Positions 1-17,539 of a DNA stretch of 17,539 bases are shown in pieces (the stretch's first letter is position 1; the number at the start of each line of letters is the position of its first letter). Source of the stretch: a virus. Made by a program: the position numbers and the translations under genes. The notes beneath the pieces are model-generated. The model did no database searches, was not told the DNA's origin, and saw only the letters and a program-made list of their open reading frames with translations. The stretch is from IMG/VR virus record IMGVR_UViG_3300045988_168756; one strand, written 5' to 3'.

Positions 1-73
1 CCCTGGGGGTTGCGGCCCCAAAACATGCACTTTGGAAAACCAAAATCCCTGTCCTCCCTTACGAAAATAAAGC

Positions 74-102
74 TTGCATTTTCCAGCACACTATGCTATA
101 AT
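74..102 (+). promoter_or_regulatory. Early promoter in ITR-L (sigma-A type)
   Basis: TTGCAT (74-79), 17-nt spacer, TATAAT (97-102), preceded by TGc (extended -10). It lies about 45 nt upstream of the first ITR gene and faces inward. Confidence 0.7.
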
Positions 103-146
103 GATTATAGAAACAAGATATAGGGATTCAGAAAGAGAGGTACATT

Positions 147-314
147 ATGGTAAGTAAATATGGAGAATTTAAAGGTTATGATTGGAACACTGGTTTGTAC
201 ATTTCTCGTTATTGGGCAAAGCACTATTATCCTGAACGAGTAGCAGTTAAGGTAGAAGGTGGATATAAAACAATGACTCATGACGAATATAGAATATGGA
301 GGAATCAGAAATGA
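147..314 (+). CDS. Hypothetical early protein, 55 aa, aromatic-rich (ITR copy L)
   Basis: Not in the ORF track because it is under 60 aa. ATG at 147 is preceded by AGAAAGAGAGG with 6-nt spacing. Translation is MVSKYGEFKGYDWNTGLYISRYWAKHYYPERVAVKVEGGYKTMTHDEYRIWRNQK. The stop TGA at 312-314 overlaps the next ATG (ATGA coupling). It is the first gene after the promoter. Confidence 0.6.
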   Translation: MVSKYGEFKGYDWNTGLYISRYWAKHYYPERVAVKVEGGYKTMTHDEYRIWRNQK

Positions 315-511
315 CAAAAGTTTCTACTTTAAAATTCGGAGATTTATATATGTGCAATTCAGCATGGAATGAAGATACCTACATCGAATTATTAGATGAC
401 TCAGAGAACACAGTAACTTGTAAAGCTAGACACGCTTATTATTTCTTTCCAGATGCAGAAGTAAGTTGTTTCAAAGAAAATCAAGTAATATTCAGAGGGA
501 AGGTGTTATAA
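311..511 (+). CDS. Hypothetical early protein, 66 aa (ITR copy L)
   Basis: This is track ORF 296-511. I prefer the start at ATG 311 (MTKVSTLKF...), because GGAGG at 298-302 lies 8 nt upstream and ATG 296 has no RBS. The stop TAA at 509-511 overlaps the next start (TAATG). Confidence 0.65.
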   Translation: MTKVSTLKFGDLYMCNSAWNEDTYIELLDDSENTVTCKARHAYYFFPDAEVSCFKENQVIFRGKVL

Positions 512-762
512 TGAATCACGAACAACTAGTATTAAAAGCGGTTCTCACCGCAAGAAAATACAACAAACAACTGAATAAGGAAGTTCTTATCTATAAGTAC
601 TCTCTCATATCTGACTCTCTTCTGAAAGCTTACATTGACGAACTCAATCTAATCCACGCAGAAGAGCAAGAATTCATTCCCGACGAGCCAGCAGACGAAT
701 ACGACTGCGAACCAGAGTACTACGAATACGAACACTATAACGACTATCTTTGGAACATGTAA
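511..762 (+). CDS. Hypothetical early protein, 83 aa, with a strongly acidic Tyr-rich C-terminus (ITR copy L)
   Basis: This is track ORF 466-762. I prefer the start at ATG 511 (MNHEQLVLK...), preceded by GAGGGAAGGTG. The C-terminal tail reads EEQEFIPDEPADEYDCEPEYYEYEHYNDYLWNM. Confidence 0.7.
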   Translation: MNHEQLVLKAVLTARKYNKQLNKEVLIYKYSLISDSLLKAYIDELNLIHAEEQEFIPDEPADEYDCEPEYYEYEHYNDYLWNM

Positions 763-775
763 AGGAGGATACAAA

Positions 776-1096
776 ATGAACTTAGATGCAATTCAATCCA
801 TCATGGAACAGTTAGTAGAGCAAACTTGCTCAGATAATCTCAGACTCTATCGCAATGATAGAGTCTGTTGTATAGAAACAAGTGAGGGCGAATCATTTTC
901 CGCTTATGTAAATGAGTTCGGATGTATAACTCTTAATTCGCATTTCACCGGTTCAAATGTTATTAATGGAATAACATCCACATCTAAATTATACATTTCA
1001 TTGTCAACCTTTGAAACAGCCCTAGAATATAATATGATGCATTATTTTCCAGACTATATAGAACGTCTTAAGAACGCCGCATTATGGGAGGATTAA
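776..1096 (+). CDS. Hypothetical early protein, 106 aa (ITR copy L)
   Basis: ORF with AAAGGAGGA 7 nt upstream of the ATG. I recognise no motif. Confidence 0.7.
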   Translation: MNLDAIQSIMEQLVEQTCSDNLRLYRNDRVCCIETSEGESFSAYVNEFGCITLNSHFTGSNVINGITSTSKLYISLSTFETALEYNMMHYFPDYIERLKNAALWED

Positions 1097-1098
1097 AT

Positions 1099-1185
1099 AT
1101 GACAAATATAAATTTTCAGATTCAAGAATTTTTTTGAGCGAAATATTTACACATTTCTTGATGTTATACCAGCTAGGTATTATGA
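1099..1185 (+). pseudogene. Decayed left-arm remnant of the right-arm gene 16136-16441
   Basis: ATG 1099 with the same RBS as the right copy. The first 8 codons (MTNINFQI) lie inside the perfect ITR. Beyond 1123 the sequence diverges and reaches TGA at 1135-1137 after 12 codons. Roughly two-thirds nucleotide identity to the right copy, with a 1-nt indel, remains visible by eye to about 1185 (for example the shared CCAGCTAG and TATGAAGTTTC blocks). Confidence 0.7.
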
Positions 1186-1288
1186 AGTTTCGGTATTTTA
1201 ATCACCTGAGTCAAGAACTACCTTTATCTATTTTCCTTGTAGGTGGGGTGGTCAAACCTTCAATCCAACCCAAAGGAGGTGAATCCAC

Positions 1289-1441
1289 ATGATAGTACTA
1301 AACTATGTTCTAATCGTACTCTCCCTAGTACTCTTCATTTACTCCGGAGACACGAACATACTAATCGCAGTAGGTCTGTTCTCAATCGCGCAATCGATAA
1401 CAAACCTCAAAGTAAACATCCATAAGAAATCTCGCTATTAG
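1289..1441 (+). CDS. Small hydrophobic (predicted membrane) protein, 50 aa
   Basis: Not in the track. AAAGGAGGTG lies 7 nt upstream of ATG 1289. Translation is MIVLNYVLIVLSLVLFIYSGDTNILIAVGLFSIAQSITNLKVNIHKKSRY, giving one or two hydrophobic segments and a basic tail. A hairpin terminator follows. Confidence 0.6.
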   Translation: MIVLNYVLIVLSLVLFIYSGDTNILIAVGLFSIAQSITNLKVNIHKKSRY

Positions 1442-1449
1442 TAACAAGG

Positions 1450-1474
1450 CGGTGGAGTCAAAACGGCTCCACCG
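1450..1474. terminator. Hairpin between convergent transcription units (likely bidirectional terminator)
   Basis: CGGTGGAG (1450-1457) pairs with CTCCACCG (1467-1474), extendable by T-G and C-G pairs around an AAAAC loop. It lies between the end of the plus-strand left early operon and the stop of the minus-strand endolysin gene. The flanking T-tracts are weak. Confidence 0.5.
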
Positions 1475-1485
1475 TTCTTATGTTA

Positions 1486-2793: not shown

Positions 2794-3549
2794 CTATCCT
2801 TTCGGTTTGTAGTACCCGTTTCCAATAAAATAAAACAAGGTATCTCTATATTTTACAATATCTGTACTAATACGTCTAACTTGCCACGGTAAAAAATACA
2901 ATGGATTATGTGTCATTTTAAGATAAAAATTACCATTCCATTCCCACAAGTATAAATATTCATTTTCCGGTTCCGGCTCAGGTGGCGGATCAGGTGGGGG
3001 AGTAGGAGGTTCAGGCGGCGGTTCTGGTTCTCCTTGAGCAAGTACCTGATACCAGTACCATGCTTGACTTCCGCGCTTTGGCTGATTCTGATTGCTAGGA
3101 CGTTCATAATTTTTCAACCATACGTCGGCAAGGTATTTGACGCACTGTTCGTCTGTCATTCCAATGCTGGTGTCAGGCGTATATTTTATGAACTCAGCAA
3201 ACGATAATGGATATTTACTTGTAGGGGAATACTGTTCTCGATTTTCAAGTTCCCATTGTATACGTGCAAGTTGGTGTTCATAATTGCTGTAGTCTGTCCA
3301 GCCATTTTCTCTACACCAATTAAAGTACTTTGTTGCTGGTGTCCACTGAACCAGACCGTAACCTCCACTGGTATTTCCCGCATTTAACCCTTCCCAGATT
3401 CCCGGATTAAAAGTACTTTCTGTCTGCAAGTTACCGAACATTCCAGCAATCGCATATTCTGTCCATCCCATAGCTTTGAATAATGGCCATAGTTCTGTAG
3501 CGTTTTCTGTCATGTCCGGTAACTGTAAGTACGCGTTACTGGTTATCAT
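2794..3549 (-). CDS. Tail-associated peptidoglycan hydrolase (phage tail lysozyme type), with a Pro-rich linker and an unknown aromatic C-terminal domain
   Basis: The N-terminal domain carries GNLQTESTFNP....GGYGLVQWT, the pattern of the phage tail lysozyme family. The linker EPEPPPEPPTPPPDPPPEPEPE follows, then about 55 aa rich in Tyr, Trp and Phe. It occupies the position of phi29 gp13. Confidence 0.7.
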   Translation of the reverse strand: MITSNAYLQLPDMTENATELWPLFKAMGWTEYAIAGMFGNLQTESTFNPGIWEGLNAGNTSGGYGLVQWTPATKYFNWCRENGWTDYSNYEHQLARIQWELENREQYSPTSKYPLSFAEFIKYTPDTSIGMTDEQCVKYLADVWLKNYERPSNQNQPKRGSQAWYWYQVLAQGEPEPPPEPPTPPPDPPPEPEPENEYLYLWEWNGNFYLKMTHNPLYFLPWQVRRISTDIVKYRDTLFYFIGNGYYKPKG

Positions 3550-4340
3550 TTTTTAGCAAGTGTTATTTCTATACTAAAATTAAGTCTTCCAGCGCTTTGC
3601 GCGTCTTGACCGTAAACTAAACTTAATCTTGTTACTTCATTTGATAATTCTTTTTCAGCGGTAGTTGGAAAATTTGAATTGAAGTAGTGAAATATTACTT
3701 CTCCTGACACGTCATTTTCTCTAACTACAAGAGATGAGCCAGTGCCTGAAGAACTTCCATTTATTAAATTAACCTTTGAAATTTTAGTTCCGTCAGGCGC
3801 GTCTACGCTAAAGTTATTTGTTTTGTTTCCACTTGCAAGGTTTGGAGCCCATGAGCCAATGGAATAATTTGTTTTTATTATTGTAACTTTAGGTGTTGAT
3901 TCAAGTGCTGTAACCCTCGCGTCCAGTCCATTAATCTGACTCACATTTCCCTGAGCCTGCTGTAACGCCGCATTGGCATCTGTGCTAGCCTGATTCGCCG
4001 CATTCACAGCCGCTGTAGAATTGGTATTAGCCTGACCAGATTTTGTAGCCGCATCATTTGCTTGAGTCAACGCAGTCTGAACTTTAGTTTCTATGGTATC
4101 TGCTAACCCGCTAATACTATCCACCTGATTCTGAGTCTCAGTCAACGTTTCCTCAGCGTCCCCAATTCTCGCGTTGGCTTCATCCATTTTGTTGGAACCT
4201 TCACCAGCAGAATTTTTGTTGTCATTCATCCCCTTGTCGATAATTCCCATTGCATCATTAAAGTCTCCAAGGAAAGTGGGTTTATCGGTGTCGATGTACT
4301 GCGGAAGGCCATAGTTGGGTGTTTTGTTTGTACTACTCAT
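3546..4340 (-). CDS. Tail fibre / receptor-binding protein candidate
   Basis: The N-terminus PNYGLPQYIDTDKPTFLGDFNDAMGIIDKGMN matches a motif common at tail-fibre N-termini. It is followed by an A/N/T/Q-rich helical stalk, the motif INGLDARVTALE, and a ~110-aa beta-looking C-terminal domain. Its stop and the next gene's start form an ATGA overlap. Confidence 0.6.
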   Translation of the reverse strand: MSSTNKTPNYGLPQYIDTDKPTFLGDFNDAMGIIDKGMNDNKNSAGEGSNKMDEANARIGDAEETLTETQNQVDSISGLADTIETKVQTALTQANDAATKSGQANTNSTAAVNAANQASTDANAALQQAQGNVSQINGLDARVTALESTPKVTIIKTNYSIGSWAPNLASGNKTNNFSVDAPDGTKISKVNLINGSSSGTGSSLVVRENDVSGEVIFHYFNSNFPTTAEKELSNEVTRLSLVYGQDAQSAGRLNFSIEITLAKK

Positions 4341-9564: not shown

Positions 9565-10848
9565 TCAGCCACCTGCCGCAGTCACTTTTTTCTCCCCATG
9601 TACGGAGTTATCGAGATACGGCGTAGCGTAAATAGTAAGAGCTCCTTTTTCTTCTGCGCCTACACTCAGCACGCCCTGATCATTCATACGTGTACTGGAA
9701 GATGTATTTCCGAGAACAGACCACATTACAGCCTGAGATGGGTTATTTGTTCCGGTTACTGTTGCCGTGTAAACAGAACTTCCACCAGGGGTGTAGGTGT
9801 CCGCACCAGCAATCGTTACACTGGTGACTGTCGGAAGAGCCGCAGTTGTAATCGCAATTGCATTGTGGAACGGAGAAAGGAAGTAAGTCTGCCATACATG
9901 CAACCAGTAATTCCAAGAGAGTTTTTCCCGGTCATAGAAATCGTTTGCTTCGAAAAGATTATCATAAATGTTCAAGAATTCTTCATCCGCAATGATAGCG
10001 ATAATTTCCGGGTGATTCGGAATCTCCGGAATCAGTGTTATTCTTCCAAGAAAACGTGCTTCATCCATATGGAACGCGTATGCTAAAGCCTGTACGCTGG
10101 TAACAGCATCTGCCTTTGGAGTAATAAAAAGACGCTGGTCTTCCAGAGACGTTGTATTCATAACTCCTGCCGCATTCATGGAACGAGTAGGAAAACGTAA
10201 TGTGTTAGACGCAATTCTAAGAGCGGTAAGAAAGCTCTTTGCACTTGCTTCATCGGTCGGTTCGTCGGCATGAACCAATTTAAACTTTCCGCTGTCAACA
10301 TAATCAACAAACAGAGCAAGTGTGTACGCGAATTCAGCAACATCATTACTGGTGTACATACCATTTATAACTCTGTCTACCAGAGACGCAACACCTTCTT
10401 CGGAATAAAAAGCGGCCTGTAAATCTCGTCTCCAAATGGTCTGTTTAAAATAGTCCTCCCGGTTACGGTTGTGGTAGGCAACTTTCAGGTCAGGCTTTTC
10501 AGTCTTTAACATTGCCCATGGATCGGTGTCCTCGCCATAAGCATGCGCTGTTGCAATGTCAACCCAGATATCCTCAATCGTATATCCATACGGTATCATA
10601 CCACGCTTTGCAAAACCGAAGGGATTCGTAAAGTACATTTTGTTGACTTTAGTGAAGGAAACCTTGTTCACCAGAAAGTCGAAGAACCGGTTCATTACAG
10701 GTTCATAATTCATCAACGTACCGCCGAACTCACGAATGTTCGTACTTACGGGTTCCGGCAAAAGTCCTTCATATTCTGTGCCAGCTAAACTTGCTCTAAA
10801 GTCCGCAAGCAATGCGGGAACATTTGATACTGCATTTTTTACTGCCAT
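9565..10848 (-). CDS. Major capsid protein with a C-terminal bacterial Ig-like (BIG2-type) domain, phi29 gp8-like
   Basis: 427 aa with AGGAGG upstream. It lies between the scaffold candidate and the tail knob. The C-terminal ~85 aa (VTSVTIAGADTYTPGGSSVYTATVTGTNNPSQAVMWSV...GVLSV) has the BIG2 pattern, the same architecture as phi29 gp8. Confidence 0.75.
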   Translation of the reverse strand: MAVKNAVSNVPALLADFRASLAGTEYEGLLPEPVSTNIREFGGTLMNYEPVMNRFFDFLVNKVSFTKVNKMYFTNPFGFAKRGMIPYGYTIEDIWVDIATAHAYGEDTDPWAMLKTEKPDLKVAYHNRNREDYFKQTIWRRDLQAAFYSEEGVASLVDRVINGMYTSNDVAEFAYTLALFVDYVDSGKFKLVHADEPTDEASAKSFLTALRIASNTLRFPTRSMNAAGVMNTTSLEDQRLFITPKADAVTSVQALAYAFHMDEARFLGRITLIPEIPNHPEIIAIIADEEFLNIYDNLFEANDFYDREKLSWNYWLHVWQTYFLSPFHNAIAITTAALPTVTSVTIAGADTYTPGGSSVYTATVTGTNNPSQAVMWSVLGNTSSSTRMNDQGVLSVGAEEKGALTIYATPYLDNSVHGEKKVTAAGG

Positions 10849-11164: not shown

Positions 11165-11270
11165 CAATCCCACATTTAAAGAAATAGGAGCGTCTAAAAA
11201 TCGAAATGCGGGATTGCAAGCCGGTATGGGACTGCCAGCGTATTACCGCTTTCCCTCAGCAGTCTACCAA
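11165..11270 (-). ncRNA. Candidate structured RNA (two adjacent large hairpins) in the ATPase-scaffold gap
   Basis: In the minus-strand transcript, hairpin I is UUGGUA-GACUGC (11270-11259) pairing with GCAGUC-cca-UACCGG (11235-11221), with an inner AGCG/CGCU stem around a GUAAUA loop. Hairpin II is CAAUCCCGCAUUU (11216-11204) pairing with AAAUGUGGGAUUG (11177-11165), 13 bp including one G-U. The G-U pairs exist only in the minus-sense RNA. No convincing ORF lies in the 163-nt gap. Confidence 0.4.
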
Positions 11271-11301
11271 AATTTAAACACTCCTACTCAATATAAGTGT
11301 A

Positions 11302-13188: not shown

Positions 13189-13218
13189 ATTATACCATGT
13201 TTTACTGTATTTTGTCAA
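13189..13218 (-). promoter_or_regulatory. Internal consensus promoter for the p6-like / p5-like genes
   Basis: On the minus strand: TTGACA (13218-13213, inside the last codons of the polymerase gene), 18-nt spacer, TATAAT (13194-13189) preceded by TGg. It lies about 60 nt upstream of ATG 13126. Confidence 0.65.
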
Positions 13219-15079
13219 GCACTTTACCAAAAGATTTCGGCGGCTTGTACGCTTTTTGCTTGTAAAGTGTGAAATCTGCATCCACCAAAAGTAACCCTCC
13301 CTTTACTTGCTTTTGTTTTAATTGACTATTTAACGTTAATCCATAATCAAAACATGAGATAGGCCTTGTGGCAAGCAAATACTGTTTGGTGCGGTCTTGC
13401 ATACCCGCGCATTTAATTTCCCAGTGCGGTGTTACTTTTTTATGGTTTTCCTTACGGATAAATTCACAGTAAGTTTTCTGACGAATGAACTTTGCACGAC
13501 TCCATTCCGATTCTAGTTTCCAACATAATAATTTTGTAGAATGTTCTTCGATTTTGTTAGGTGTACATTTAAACATGTGTAAGCTGTCTGTATCTGCGTA
13601 TATAAAGTTTTCATAATTTGCCTGTGCGTGCGTGATAGTAAAATATCTTGCATAAGATGTTACAAAACTGCCTTGAGCAATGGAAAGCGTTTTCTTGTTG
13701 TGCTCTTCATGCAAAATAAATCTGAGAATACCATCTTCATCTAAATAGGGTTCCTGATAACTGCTATCATCATTGGTAGCAAGTTTGCCATAACAGTTAT
13801 TCAAAAACAACTTTGCTTCTTCTCTTGCCCCACCTTCCGAATTCATTTTCATAGCCATATACTTGTCTATGTATTCGTCAAATAGTCCCGCAACTGCATT
13901 AAAATAACATCCACTTAAAATCTCAATTTCGTGTATATCATAGTGCTCTAAAAATAGTTTATAATCGAGACTTGTTAACGTAAATTCCGCGTATGCTAAT
14001 TGCAGTATTCCGTCTGCATCGTAATAATATGCATATTTTTTACCGCCAAACTGCACGTCAGATGATGTAAGCCATTCCGTGGACTTATACATAAGACTGT
14101 CTTTAATCTGCATTGTAGGTAAATGATTCGGCTTTATAGTAAACCGTGCTTTTAGTCTTACAAAAAATACTCTATTTTCTTGCAAGGCTTCTTCAGGTAT
14201 TTTATTGCCTGTCCAAAATGTAGGCTTACCTACTGGATAAATGTTTCCACTTTTGGAATGCATAACGGAGGGATAAAGGCTGTTTACATCATATGTCATG
14301 CCATCTGTGTCTATCCACTTATTCATATATTTTGGATTGCAATAACACCAACCCCCACGATAAGAGCGGCGTATATATGCATCTGCGTTTGGATACTTAT
14401 AAACACTTTCGTCCAGCACAAACGCTTTAAGGTCTGGATACATCGCATTCCATTGCTCTTTATCAAAACACTTCTTATATTCAGCTATGCAATTACTTCC
14501 TATCGTTAAACGAGTGTTGCCAGAATCTAGCATAAATTCAAGAGCTTCTTTAAGTACCATAACATCATTTATTATGTACTGCATTTCTTCGGGTTTTATT
14601 AAACCGCCAGCATGACGTTCTCCTTTATACTCCATTTCAAGTTTACGATGTTTAGTATTAAACGCTTTTCCCATTCGTGCTAGCGTCATTGGCATAAGTT
14701 TTGCACTATCTCGTATTTCTATTAATGTCCGTCCTGTGCAGACAGTAATGGAATACCAGCGATTCTGTCCTGAAATGATTGCGTCGAATTCCCCCTTATA
14801 AAGCTTTTCGTATGGCTTCTTGCGATGATGGAATTTATACCCATTTTCCATGAGAGTATTGAGCAGAAAATTACCGTCGAATTTTACATTATGAAAATAT
14901 GCAATCACTTTCTCTTCACAAAGATTCTGAAAGAACTTAATAAAATCATGAATATTATTATACACTGTAACAAAATCTGAATACAGTTCTGCAATAGCCG
15001 CACTCCATACTTCCGTACTAGTTTGTTGTTTTGTATCATCATCTACAGTTGTCTCAAAGTCGCACGAAAATATTCGCAT
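13202..15079 (-). CDS. Protein-primed family-B DNA polymerase, phi29 gp2-like
   Basis: Exo I CDFETT, Exo II YFHNVKFDGNFLL, Exo III YIINDVMVL, motif A YDVNSLYPSVM, motif B KLFLNNCYGKLA, motif C YADTDSLH and KxY RQKTY. Each is nearly identical to the corresponding phi29 polymerase motif. Confidence 0.95.
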   Translation of the reverse strand: MRIFSCDFETTVDDDTKQQTSTEVWSAAIAELYSDFVTVYNNIHDFIKFFQNLCEEKVIAYFHNVKFDGNFLLNTLMENGYKFHHRKKPYEKLYKGEFDAIISGQNRWYSITVCTGRTLIEIRDSAKLMPMTLARMGKAFNTKHRKLEMEYKGERHAGGLIKPEEMQYIINDVMVLKEALEFMLDSGNTRLTIGSNCIAEYKKCFDKEQWNAMYPDLKAFVLDESVYKYPNADAYIRRSYRGGWCYCNPKYMNKWIDTDGMTYDVNSLYPSVMHSKSGNIYPVGKPTFWTGNKIPEEALQENRVFFVRLKARFTIKPNHLPTMQIKDSLMYKSTEWLTSSDVQFGGKKYAYYYDADGILQLAYAEFTLTSLDYKLFLEHYDIHEIEILSGCYFNAVAGLFDEYIDKYMAMKMNSEGGAREEAKLFLNNCYGKLATNDDSSYQEPYLDEDGILRFILHEEHNKKTLSIAQGSFVTSYARYFTITHAQANYENFIYADTDSLHMFKCTPNKIEEHSTKLLCWKLESEWSRAKFIRQKTYCEFIRKENHKKVTPHWEIKCAGMQDRTKQYLLATRPISCFDYGLTLNSQLKQKQVKGGLLLVDADFTLYKQKAYKPPKSFGKVLDKIQ

Positions 15080-15952: not shown

Positions 15953-15981
15953 ATTATATCATATTTCAGGACGTTTGTAAA
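15953..15981 (-). promoter_or_regulatory. Promoter of the replication operon
   Basis: On the minus strand: TTTACA (15981-15976), 17-nt spacer, TATAAT (15958-15953) preceded by TGa (extended -10). It lies about 30 nt upstream of ATG 15924. Confidence 0.7.
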
Positions 15982-15986
15982 TAAAA

Positions 15987-16019
15987 TACACCTGTTCTAT
16001 AATGTATAGAACAGGTGTA
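15987..16019 (-). terminator. Terminator of the right early operon (perfect 15-bp stem)
   Basis: TACACCTGTTCTATA (15987-16001) and TATAGAACAGGTGTA (16005-16019) are perfect complements around a 3-nt loop. On the minus strand the hairpin is followed by TTTTATTT. It starts 10 nt after the stop of the small ORF 16029-16139. Confidence 0.7.
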
Positions 16020-16028
16020 ACAATGGGC

Positions 16029-16139
16029 TTAAAAATTGTCTTTAATGTGTTTGATAACTTGTGCAGTTATGGAACATCCGATTAGATATACTGTAAGGGA
16101 TATTATTGCGGTTAGAACGATTATGATGATTTCAATCAT
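16029..16139 (-). CDS. Small hydrophobic (predicted membrane) peptide, 36 aa
   Basis: Not in the track. ATG 16139 overlaps the upstream stop (ATGA), and AGGAGGAG lies 7 nt upstream. Translation is MIEIIIIVLTAIISLTVYLIGCSITAQVIKHIKDNF. Confidence 0.5.
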   Translation of the reverse strand: MIEIIIIVLTAIISLTVYLIGCSITAQVIKHIKDNF

Positions 16140-16441
16140 TTTGGGCTCCTCCTGTATTCTTTTGCCATGGTTAAAAAAGTATCAAGTAGATATTGTAGAT
16201 ACATTATGTCTAAGTGTCCATCAGGTTTTAAAACTCCCTGAATATCAGAATATGTTACTCTAAGTCTGTAAGCTTCTTCATATGTTAATTCACCTCCATA
16301 AAACAGTAATGAAATGCTTGTTTCTCCTGTTACTGGAATTGGCATAACGGAAACTTCATAGTTGCTAGCTGGTATTATCTCTAGGAATTTGTGGATATCT
16401 CTTTTAAAGAATTCCTCAATCTGAAAATTTATATTTGTCAT
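16136..16441 (-). CDS. Hypothetical early protein, 101 aa, spanning the inner ITR-R boundary
   Basis: This is track ORF 16136-16456. I prefer ATG 16441 (MTNINFQIEEFF...), with GGAGG 7 nt upstream. Only its first 8 codons lie inside the perfect ITR. The left-arm counterpart is truncated. Confidence 0.65.
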   Translation of the reverse strand: MTNINFQIEEFFKRDIHKFLEIIPASNYEVSVMPIPVTGETSISLLFYGGELTYEEAYRLRVTYSDIQGVLKPDGHLDIMYLQYLLDTFLTMAKEYRRSPK

Positions 16442-16443
16442 AT

Positions 16444-16764
16444 TTAATCCTCCCATAATGCGGCGTTCTTAAGACGTTCTATATAGTCTGGAAAATAATG
16501 CATCATATTATATTCTAGGGCTGTTTCAAAGGTTGACAATGAAATGTATAATTTAGATGTGGATGTTATTCCATTAATAACATTTGAACCGGTGAAATGC
16601 GAATTAAGAGTTATACATCCGAACTCATTTACATAAGCGGAAAATGATTCGCCCTCACTTGTTTCTATACAACAGACTCTATCATTGCGATAGAGTCTGA
16701 GATTATCTGAGCAAGTTTGCTCTACTAACTGTTCCATGATGGATTGAATTGCATCTAAGTTCAT
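16444..16764 (-). CDS. Hypothetical early protein, 106 aa (ITR copy R)
   Basis: Identical translation to 776-1096. Confidence 0.7.
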   Translation of the reverse strand: MNLDAIQSIMEQLVEQTCSDNLRLYRNDRVCCIETSEGESFSAYVNEFGCITLNSHFTGSNVINGITSTSKLYISLSTFETALEYNMMHYFPDYIERLKNAALWED

Positions 16765-16777
16765 TTTGTATCCTCCT

Positions 16778-17029
16778 TTACATGTTCCAAAGATAGTCGT
16801 TATAGTGTTCGTATTCGTAGTACTCTGGTTCGCAGTCGTATTCGTCTGCTGGCTCGTCGGGAATGAATTCTTGCTCTTCTGCGTGGATTAGATTGAGTTC
16901 GTCAATGTAAGCTTTCAGAAGAGAGTCAGATATGAGAGAGTACTTATAGATAAGAACTTCCTTATTCAGTTGTTTGTTGTATTTTCTTGCGGTGAGAACC
17001 GCTTTTAATACTAGTTGTTCGTGATTCAT
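16778..17029 (-). CDS. Hypothetical acidic Tyr-rich early protein, 83 aa (ITR copy R)
   Basis: Identical translation to 511-762. Confidence 0.7.
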   Translation of the reverse strand: MNHEQLVLKAVLTARKYNKQLNKEVLIYKYSLISDSLLKAYIDELNLIHAEEQEFIPDEPADEYDCEPEYYEYEHYNDYLWNM

Positions 17030-17229
17030 TATAACACCTTCCCTCTGAATATTACTTGATTTTCTTTGAAACAACTTACTTCTGCATCTGGAAAGAAATA
17101 ATAAGCGTGTCTAGCTTTACAAGTTACTGTGTTCTCTGAGTCATCTAATAATTCGATGTAGGTATCTTCATTCCATGCTGAATTGCACATATATAAATCT
17201 CCGAATTTTAAAGTAGAAACTTTTGTCAT
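17029..17229 (-). CDS. Hypothetical early protein, 66 aa (ITR copy R)
   Basis: Identical translation to 311-511. Confidence 0.65.
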   Translation of the reverse strand: MTKVSTLKFGDLYMCNSAWNEDTYIELLDDSENTVTCKARHAYYFFPDAEVSCFKENQVIFRGKVL

Positions 17230-17393
17230 TTCTGATTCCTCCATATTCTATATTCGTCATGAGTCATTGTTTTATATCCACCTTCTACCTTAACTGCTAC
17301 TCGTTCAGGATAATAGTGCTTTGCCCAATAACGAGAAATGTACAAACCAGTGTTCCAATCATAACCTTTAAATTCTCCATATTTACTTACCAT
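17226..17393 (-). CDS. Hypothetical early protein, 55 aa (ITR copy R)
   Basis: Mirror of 147-314. Confidence 0.6.
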   Translation of the reverse strand: MVSKYGEFKGYDWNTGLYISRYWAKHYYPERVAVKVEGGYKTMTHDEYRIWRNQK

Positions 17394-17437
17394 AATGTAC
17401 CTCTCTTTCTGAATCCCTATATCTTGTTTCTATAATC

Positions 17438-17466
17438 ATTATAGCATAGTGTGCTGGAAAATGCAA
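17438..17466 (-). promoter_or_regulatory. Early promoter in ITR-R
   Basis: Mirror of 74-102: TTGCAT, 17 nt, TGcTATAAT on the minus strand, facing inward. Confidence 0.7.
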
Positions 17467-17539
17467 GCTTTATTTTCGTAAGGGAGGACAGGGATTTTGG
17501 TTTTCCAAAGTGCATGTTTTGGGGCCGCAACCCCCAGGG

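Follow-up and report, generated by a model that had tools for sequence, protein, structure and literature searches.

The four small genes g1 to g4, which follow a promoter at both ends of the viral genome IMGVR_UViG_3300045988_168756 (IMG/VR), are probably duplicated there as one case of recurrent terminal arm replacement in human-gut phi29-like protein-primed podophages, that is, as a by-product of unstable genome ends. The stretch analyzed here (17,539 nucleotides, nt; hereafter the window) is the complete linear genome of a phi29-like podophage, and its ends are inverted repeats. phi29-like phages are textbook models, pictured with terminal repeats a few bases long and with no genes in them. 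The repeats of the window and what they contain are given below (aa, amino acids; pI, isoelectric point).

1 to 1122, no strand: left inverted terminal repeat, identical to the reverse complement of 16418-17539
16418 to 17539, no strand: right inverted terminal repeat, the source copy of the cassette
1 to 146, plus strand: ancestral repeat core, with the terminus CCCTGGGGGTTGCGGCCCC, promoter and ribosome-binding site; in most relatives the repeat consists of this core alone
74 to 102, plus strand: promoter TTGCAT, 17-nt spacer, TGcTATAAT (mirror at 17438-17466, minus strand)
147 to 314, plus strand: g1, 55 aa, basic, pI 9.4
311 to 511, plus strand: g2, 66 aa, ATGA overlap with g1
511 to 762, plus strand: g3, 83 aa, TAATG overlap with g2
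776 to 1096, plus strand: g4, 106 aa, acidic
1099 to 1246, plus strand: frameshifted g5 relic in the left arm
17226 to 17393, minus strand: g1', right repeat
17029 to 17229, minus strand: g2', right repeat
16778 to 17029, minus strand: g3', right repeat
16444 to 16764, minus strand: g4', right repeat

The window was compared with 14 IMG/VR contigs of 16.2-17.0 kb and with contigs from ENA, Logan and GenBank that carry the operon. In 10 of the 14 IMG/VR relatives the repeat spans just ~145 nt (terminus, promoter and ribosome-binding site), and the right end has the sole copy of g1-g4. On the left of these ten genomes, the ~145-nt repeat is followed by a different gene of 64 aa, here called gL, and then by a 50-aa membrane open reading frame (ORF) that corresponds to window positions 1289-1441. 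The window has no gL. Two of the relatives' contigs were assembled at both ends, and their short repeats match imperfectly (145 nt at 93% identity and 180 nt at 96.7%), which argues that they are genuine and not assembler duplicates. The initial annotation had read the presence of the cassette in both arms as a means to double its dosage and to make its expression independent of the polarity of entry. The single-copy state of these ten relatives, where the left-hand copy of the promoter is followed by gL, speaks against that reading.

The control region is what all arms share. Promoter and ribosome-binding site AGAAAGAGAGG are kept base for base in every arm of every relative, and divergence begins precisely at the start codon. 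Of the near-consensus promoter announced for each end, both copies and a perfect extended -10 element (TGcTATAAT at 94-102) are there, but the -35 element (TTGCAT at 74-79) is weak, with 3/6 matches, and for this reason a consensus scanner did not list the promoter. Rfam yielded no RNA element in the repeat, neither a prohead RNA (pRNA) nor any other. The 12-mer TATAGAAACAAG, located just downstream of the -10 box (106-117), recurs within g4 (871-882), with 76% identity over the full 25-nt repeat; this recurrence is probably due to chance.

Behind the control region, gene content varies among the relatives. There are three sequence types of g1, which in one relative is a tandem pair, and two types of g5, while g2 may be present, absent or swapped for an unrelated 64-aa ORF. 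The possibility that this 64-aa ORF is a divergent g2 homologue was rejected, as BLASTP shows no similarity between the two. The tandem pair is found in the right arm of IMG/VR 3300029619_000040, 62-390 nt inward from the terminus, where two g1 paralogues of 56 and 58 aa stand in the places of g1 and g2.

The left arm of the window retains traces of how it was formed. Past nt 1122 the two arms differ by mismatches at 1123, 1125 and 1131 and then by a 1-nt indel, after which a diverged extension continues to ~1246. This extension is a frameshifted relic of g5, translated as ...ERNIYTFLDVIPARYYEVSVF up to a stop. The relic is 85% identical (66/78) to the type-2 g5 of relatives and 73% identical (51/70) to the g5 in the right arm of the window itself, suggesting that the genome in which the copying happened, or from which the copy came, had a type-2 g5. 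Similarity to type-2 g5 extends to ~1246, where it meets DNA unique to the left end at a microhomology junction. The left arm thus equals the right arm up to nt 1122 and continues into the g5 relic, and gL has been lost, as is to be seen when an inverted terminal repeat (ITR) expands over the opposite end. To judge from these comparisons, the copying ran from right to left, and the boundary it left is specific to the window's lineage.

The window is not alone in this respect. Among ~18 genomes, one end has replaced the other at least six times independently, with junction microhomologies of 6-16 nt. Four of these events ran from right to left (542, 647, ~1246 and ~1620 nt), and two ran from left to right and deleted g1-g3:

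IMG/VR 3300000277_000022, right to left: junction AAAAGC between g3 codon ~10 and the middle of gL
IMG/VR 133725, right to left: repeat of 647 nt (99.8%) that meets the 3' end of gL, junction GAACT(C/T)AAT
Window, right to left: ~1246 nt, junction TTG(A/T)AGG(A/T)GGG, TTGNAGGNGGG
IMG/VR 111198, right to left: ~1.62 kb, junction at the common ribosome-binding site CAAAGGAGGTGAAC
MT835904, left to right: the right end is an in-frame fusion gL(1-30)::g4(66-106), junction ~6 nt
ENA k141_113091, left to right: codons 1-23 of the 50-aa ORF joined to the 3' end of g3, 9-nt overlap

All of these junction homologies are far below assembler k-mer length. The six boundaries differ among close relatives and carry microhomology, which is the pattern of ITR expansion. 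MT835904 and ENA k141_113091 are without g1, without a g2 of the window type and without an intact g3. Since end replacements are recurrent and go both ways, the duplication appears to be lineage-specific and the cassette dispensable. A conserved design with the cassette in both arms is hard to reconcile with the different repeat boundaries of the other relatives and with these two natural variants, which have left-end sequence in place of g1-g3. Additionally, four metagenome gene calls (P0007, P0009, P0010 and P0011) are further chimeras, in which g3 is joined to the C-terminus of g5, g4(1-39) to the C-terminus of g5, or g3 to out-of-frame sequence of the 50-aa ORF. Such calls suggest that other deletions and arm junctions exist in natural populations.

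In the course of events that we propose, the native place of the cassette would be the right end, and the left end of the window would have been overwritten by a copy of it. Recombination or a template switch at a microhomology of ~12 nt would have joined g5 to DNA just upstream of the left 50-aa ORF, so that the repeat grew from ~145 nt to ~1.25 kb and the ancestral left gene gL was deleted. The outer 1122 nt would later have been homogenized with the right arm, while the inner ~120 nt were left as a decaying g5 fragment of the other allele. The oppositely oriented ends may thus have recombined at the microhomology, or the polymerase may have switched templates between them, and the arms would then have been homogenized. 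End replacement by such a mechanism would be expected of protein-primed linear replicons. The terminal operon would be expressed early, and the duplication most likely has no designed role and at most doubles the number of operon templates.

Several points weigh against this view or limit it. The arms and all junctions are known from metagenome assemblies, and an assembler that merged the two arms into a consensus could account for part of the perfect identity over 1122 nt. Extra copies of the cassette may sometimes be selected, as four right-to-left expansions in so small a sample could indicate, so that a neutral by-product is no more than probable. The cassette would be dispensable in nature if the assembled variants without g1-g3 are taken as viable, which we assume. 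Finally, no profile or fold search gave any of g1-g4 a function, and the models of g2 and g3 (concatenated with g4) have a predicted local distance difference test (pLDDT) score below 50 and are unusable.

A further-reaching reading, which we put forward tentatively, is that the genome ends behave as a recombination 'accordion', in which frequent two-way copying at microhomologies duplicates, truncates, fuses and deletes promoter-proximal accessory genes. The in-frame gL::g4 chimera and the tandem g1 pair are the cases that can be named for it. Since the repeat itself supplies the promoter and the ribosome-binding site, any newly formed arrangement would be expressed at once. If so, the smallest tailed phages would have a built-in means of fast turnover and dosage change of their host-interaction genes, comparable to terminal gene amplification in poxviruses, and g1 would be an effector in wide exchange, with Microviridae among its carriers.

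It seems unlikely that the duplication is itself adaptive, in the sense that a host-takeover or anti-defence cassette in both arms ensures immediate double-dose expression whichever end enters first. The promoter does lie inside the repeat, so that an inward-reading unit begins at each end; expansions carrying the cassette from right to left arose at least four times; and the cassette genes are accessory, variable and partly shared by horizontal transfer. Nevertheless, most relatives have a single copy, and the boundaries cut through genes (mid-g3 in two relatives, a truncated g5 in the window), unlike what selection for an intact module would leave. Two variants went the opposite way and lost g1-g3, and Pfam, PHROGs, PADLOC, PDB and Foldseek gave no similarity to anti-defence or defence-related families. 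Moreover, DNA ejection in phi29 is polar, with the right end first (the push-pull model). An accessory early module is plausible; an adaptive double dose is not supported.

We also consider it rather improbable that the cassette encodes accessory proteins of replication or DNA entry, analogous to those of the phi29 right early operon (p17, p16.7 and neighbours). Position and orientation are those of the phi29 C2 operon, with an inward terminal promoter and a unit apart from the polymerase genes (PMC11476376). A small membrane peptide is the last product of the window's operon, and the acidic tail of g3 could be a binding partner for the N-terminus of the putative terminal protein, which is very basic. 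Against this stand the empty searches of PHROGs and Pfam, which include phi29 early proteins, the absence of g1-g3 from two natural variants and of g2 from several, and the presence of g1 in Microviridae, with single-stranded DNA (ssDNA), and in 45-60-kb phages with unrelated replication systems. For g4, g5 and the membrane peptide, a role of this kind is still a serious alternative; for g1-g3 it is unlikely.

Least probable by far is that the long repeat is an assembly artefact (a miscopied arm or a strain chimera) of a short-repeat genome with gL at the left. It is true that metagenome assemblers handle inverted repeats badly, that several related contigs have adapter remnants or chimeric ends, and that collapsing two arms into one consensus would produce perfect identity over 1122 nt. 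The left arm, however, runs on into a g5 relic of another allele with its own frameshift, and the microhomology at which this relic meets left-unique DNA is too short to have come from a k-mer join. An independent ENA contig of 886 nt, from another sample, ends at window position 1130, the point at which a repeat node would be expected to branch, and other relatives have analogous yet different junctions.

Returning to terminal arm replacement as the preferred explanation, the genes that it moves form the first part of a larger unit. The four ORFs (55, 66, 83 and 106 aa), with their ATGA and TAATG overlaps, their coordinates and their mirror copies, are as first annotated, and each is preceded by a Shine-Dalgarno sequence 7-8 nt upstream. 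The description as a terminal cassette of four ORFs was right as to their promoter-proximal place at the terminus but incomplete, as they are really the first four genes of six. As read from the sequence, g1-g4 make up the first two-thirds of a self-contained six-gene terminal operon, composed of g1, g2, g3, g4, g5 and a 36-aa membrane ORF and closed by a terminator. The remaining elements of the two terminal units are as follows.

16136 to 16441, minus strand: g5, 101 aa, intact at the right end only, with its start within the repeat
16029 to 16139, minus strand: 36-aa membrane ORF, final gene of the right terminal operon
15987 to 16019, minus strand: intrinsic terminator with a 15-bp stem and a T run, closing the right terminal operon
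15953 to 15981, minus strand: separate promoter TTTACA, 17-nt spacer, TGaTATAAT (11/12) for g70, the putative terminal protein and DNA polymerase
1289 to 1441, plus strand: 50-aa membrane ORF of the left-end transcription unit, found in all relatives
1448 to 1476, plus strand: terminator-like hairpin at the point of convergence between the left-end unit and the late genes

The terminator, followed by a promoter of its own before g70, places the replication genes in a transcription unit apart from the terminal operon. Frames of g1-g4 are preserved across at least 14 relatives. The ratio of nonsynonymous to synonymous substitutions (dN/dS, median Nei-Gojobori value across relatives) is 0.20 for g1, 0.15 for g3, 0.13 for g4 and 0.32 for g5, compared with 0.07 for g70 and 0.03 for the putative terminal protein; the value for g2 (0.51) is unreliable, because unrelated forms are mixed in. 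By their frames and these ratios, g1-g4 are real genes under purifying selection, and fast-evolving ones.

What these genes do was sought by profile and structure comparison. An exhaustive HMMER search with g1-g4 against 1.84 billion representatives returned 30 matches in all, only to unannotated relatives. When g1-g4, g5 and their neighbours were searched against Pfam, PHROGs and PADLOC, the cassette had no significant match, and none of the four proteins had a match at E<=10 when PDB was searched by sequence. No homology to known anti-defence families (Ocr, ArdA, anti-CRISPRs, p56/Ugi-type) was found in Pfam, PHROGs, PADLOC, PDB sequence or HMMER searches. Structural likeness to solved inhibitors is likewise lacking for g1 (PDB Foldseek, E=2) and g4 (E=0.1), with g2 and g3 models at pLDDT <50. 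The view that none of the four resembles the replication or structural proteins of phi29 is borne out by Pfam, PHROGs, PADLOC, PDB sequence and Foldseek, all of them empty. The profile and structure searches proposed with that view thus revealed no homology to replication proteins, but they were uninformative on function.

The proteins g2, g3 and g4 are confined to the window's clade, with the exception of one distant g4 homologue (36% identity) on a 1-kb contig of the Joint Genome Institute. In a low-confidence model, the weakly basic N-terminal half of g3 is predicted to be helical. It is followed by a conserved tail of 33 residues, strongly acidic and aromatic, with a charge of -13 and an invariant YNDYLWNM at its end. 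The best-conserved protein of the cassette is g4 (83-97% identity), modelled as an alpha-beta5-alpha-alpha sandwich with a pLDDT of ~62-87. SycT and frataxin/CyaY-like sandwiches were considered as leads for g4 and rejected, since the best Foldseek match (E=0.1) is a weak and generic alpha/beta one.

The distribution of g1 is very different from that of its neighbours in the operon. It belongs to a family of 336 protein clusters, basic proteins of ~50 aa with the motif TGLYxSRYYAKK...VKVxGGY...YxxWRNQK, found in gut phages including Microviridae. In gut gokushoviruses the homologues adjoin a peptidase M15 gene; KT264791.1 (4349-4513) has its homologue as a 54-aa ORF closely preceding a peptidase M15-like gene, and in MG945233.1 (1586-1984) the homologue is the N-terminal domain of a 132-aa protein. 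The family is also present in accessory clusters of small genes in 45-60-kb gut Caudoviricetes, near antirepressor, LPD11, Lar and helix-turn-helix genes. In gut phages of 50-60 kb (L120-L122; ~6160-8060 in L120), the g1 homologue is followed by 1-2 kb without a called gene, adjoining RepA_N and DnaB genes, which may be an origin or an RNA region.

The AlphaFold2 model of g1 is confident (pLDDT 86.6) and has a beta-beta-alpha-beta-beta-alpha order. Foldseek gave a best E of 2 against PDB and, against BFVD, just uncharacterized members of the same family; a PDB profile search with the g1 alignment also had a best E of 2, and 16 family members searched against Pfam and PHROGs gave only scattered single matches with E>=0.006. 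An AbrB-like fold, an idea taken from the beta-beta-alpha-beta-beta order, was dropped for want of Foldseek support. With a confident fold, ~50 aa, a basic composition, 336 clusters and an occurrence in both ssDNA and double-stranded DNA gut phages, g1 is a good candidate for functional screening.

Taken with their variability, dispensability and the presence of g1 in unrelated gut phages including Microviridae, the genes do look like an accessory module, and to this extent the initial annotation is supported. We infer that g1-g4 encode exchangeable, dispensable accessory early proteins which act on the host rather than in core replication, because their position, small size, variability, dispensability and the spread of g1 across phage families fit such a role. 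Host shut-off, defence inhibition or another role would be equally compatible with the findings.

As to the genome as a whole, its assignment to the phi29 type is based on a DNA polymerase gene at 13202-15079 (PF03175, E=1.8e-54; phrog_1907, E=5e-144), together with a phi29-type capsid protein, connector, tail knob, single-stranded DNA-binding protein (SSB) and encapsidation ATPase (PF25622, PF05352, PF20934, PF17427, phrog_2150). Genes for the major capsid protein, connector, tail knob, lower collar, encapsidation ATPase, a p5-type SSB and a p6-like protein are located on the minus strand, as are those for a holin and a GH25-type lysin. The terminus begins with CCC and has the same terminal base in independent assemblies, and this reiterated base would suit sliding-back. 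A 214-aa ORF immediately upstream of the polymerase, the expected position, with a basic N-terminus and no significant profile match, is the putative terminal protein. phi29-type packaging normally requires a pRNA. No pRNA family was found in an Rfam scan of the window at E<=1, a search that a divergent pRNA could escape, and the non-coding gap at ~11220-11301 is one candidate place for it.

The nearest phage record in GenBank, and the sole near relative there, is the unannotated human-faecal scaffold MT835904.1 (~91% identity), while the closest cultured phages by polymerase are the Clostridium_Q symbiosum phages CS229P1-3 (48.5% amino-acid identity). In nearly all relatives the nucleotide alignment breaks between 3551 and 3896. 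This hypervariable part (3552-3895), possibly a receptor-binding or tail-appendage domain, falls in the C-terminal part of a 264-aa ORF (3546-4340, minus strand). At the left ends of IMG/VR 111198, 142605 and 154235, remnants of Illumina TruSeq or Nextera adapters abut the phage terminus, and that of 154235 also carries a 122-nt chimeric piece matching window 10487-10608; these public contigs thus need end trimming.

If the duplication is a product of arm replacement, a natural gut clade repeatedly rewrites its ends, and the terminal promoter drives whatever lands behind it. This would provide a concrete and testable route for the turnover of accessory genes in minimal phage genomes. It is also a warning that calls of completeness from inverted repeats, and inferences of gene dosage from single metagenome contigs, can mislead. 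Both the plasticity of the ends at the population level and the g1 family are worth following up.

The repeat of phi29 has 6 bp and those of its Bacillus relatives 6-16 bp, so that they hold no genes (PMC9965433, PMC6266182). In the deposited records of the cultured phi29-like phages Mendel, Reje, CH17P1 and CS229P1 and of MT835814, we found no long gene-carrying repeat, none exceeding ~120 nt. By comparison with both sets, a gene-carrying repeat of 1.1 kb is unusual for the group. The operon itself resembles the right early operon of phi29 (C2; genes 17 and 16.9-16.5; PMC11476376) in its inward terminal promoter, its small early genes including one for a membrane protein, and its separation from the polymerase and terminal-protein genes (in the window, by the terminator at 16019-15987 and the promoter at 15981-15953). 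Nevertheless, its products have no PHROGs or Pfam match and no fold similarity to p17 and p16.9-p16.5. In being small and acidic, g3 and g4 recall the DNA-mimic inhibitors phi29 p56, PBS2 Ugi and T7 Ocr, above all in the aromatic-rich g3 tail with its charge of -13, but the likeness is compositional only, with no homology in Pfam, PHROGs or PDB sequence searches.

Closer parallels to the behaviour of the ends come from other linear replicons. In the expansion of poxvirus ITRs by terminal transposition, as in 2022 mpox genomes (PMC10230479), one end is likewise duplicated onto the other and genes of the recipient end are deleted; the repeat boundary moves and varies among very close relatives, and accessory host-interaction genes become diploid. 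Poxviruses differ from the window in having hairpin ends and no terminal protein, in a scale of kilobases to tens of kilobases, and in the known immune or host-range roles of their duplicated genes. The linear chromosomes and plasmids of Streptomyces (PMC5869714, PMC7205883, PMC2920896) are cellular replicons whose repeats range from kilobases to hundreds of kilobases and whose end-patching replication is unlike the strand displacement of the phi29 type. They share with the window terminal-protein caps (putative in the window) and a repeat length that is changed by recombination between arms, often illegitimate or through double-strand-break repair, and their arms, too, differ within natural populations.

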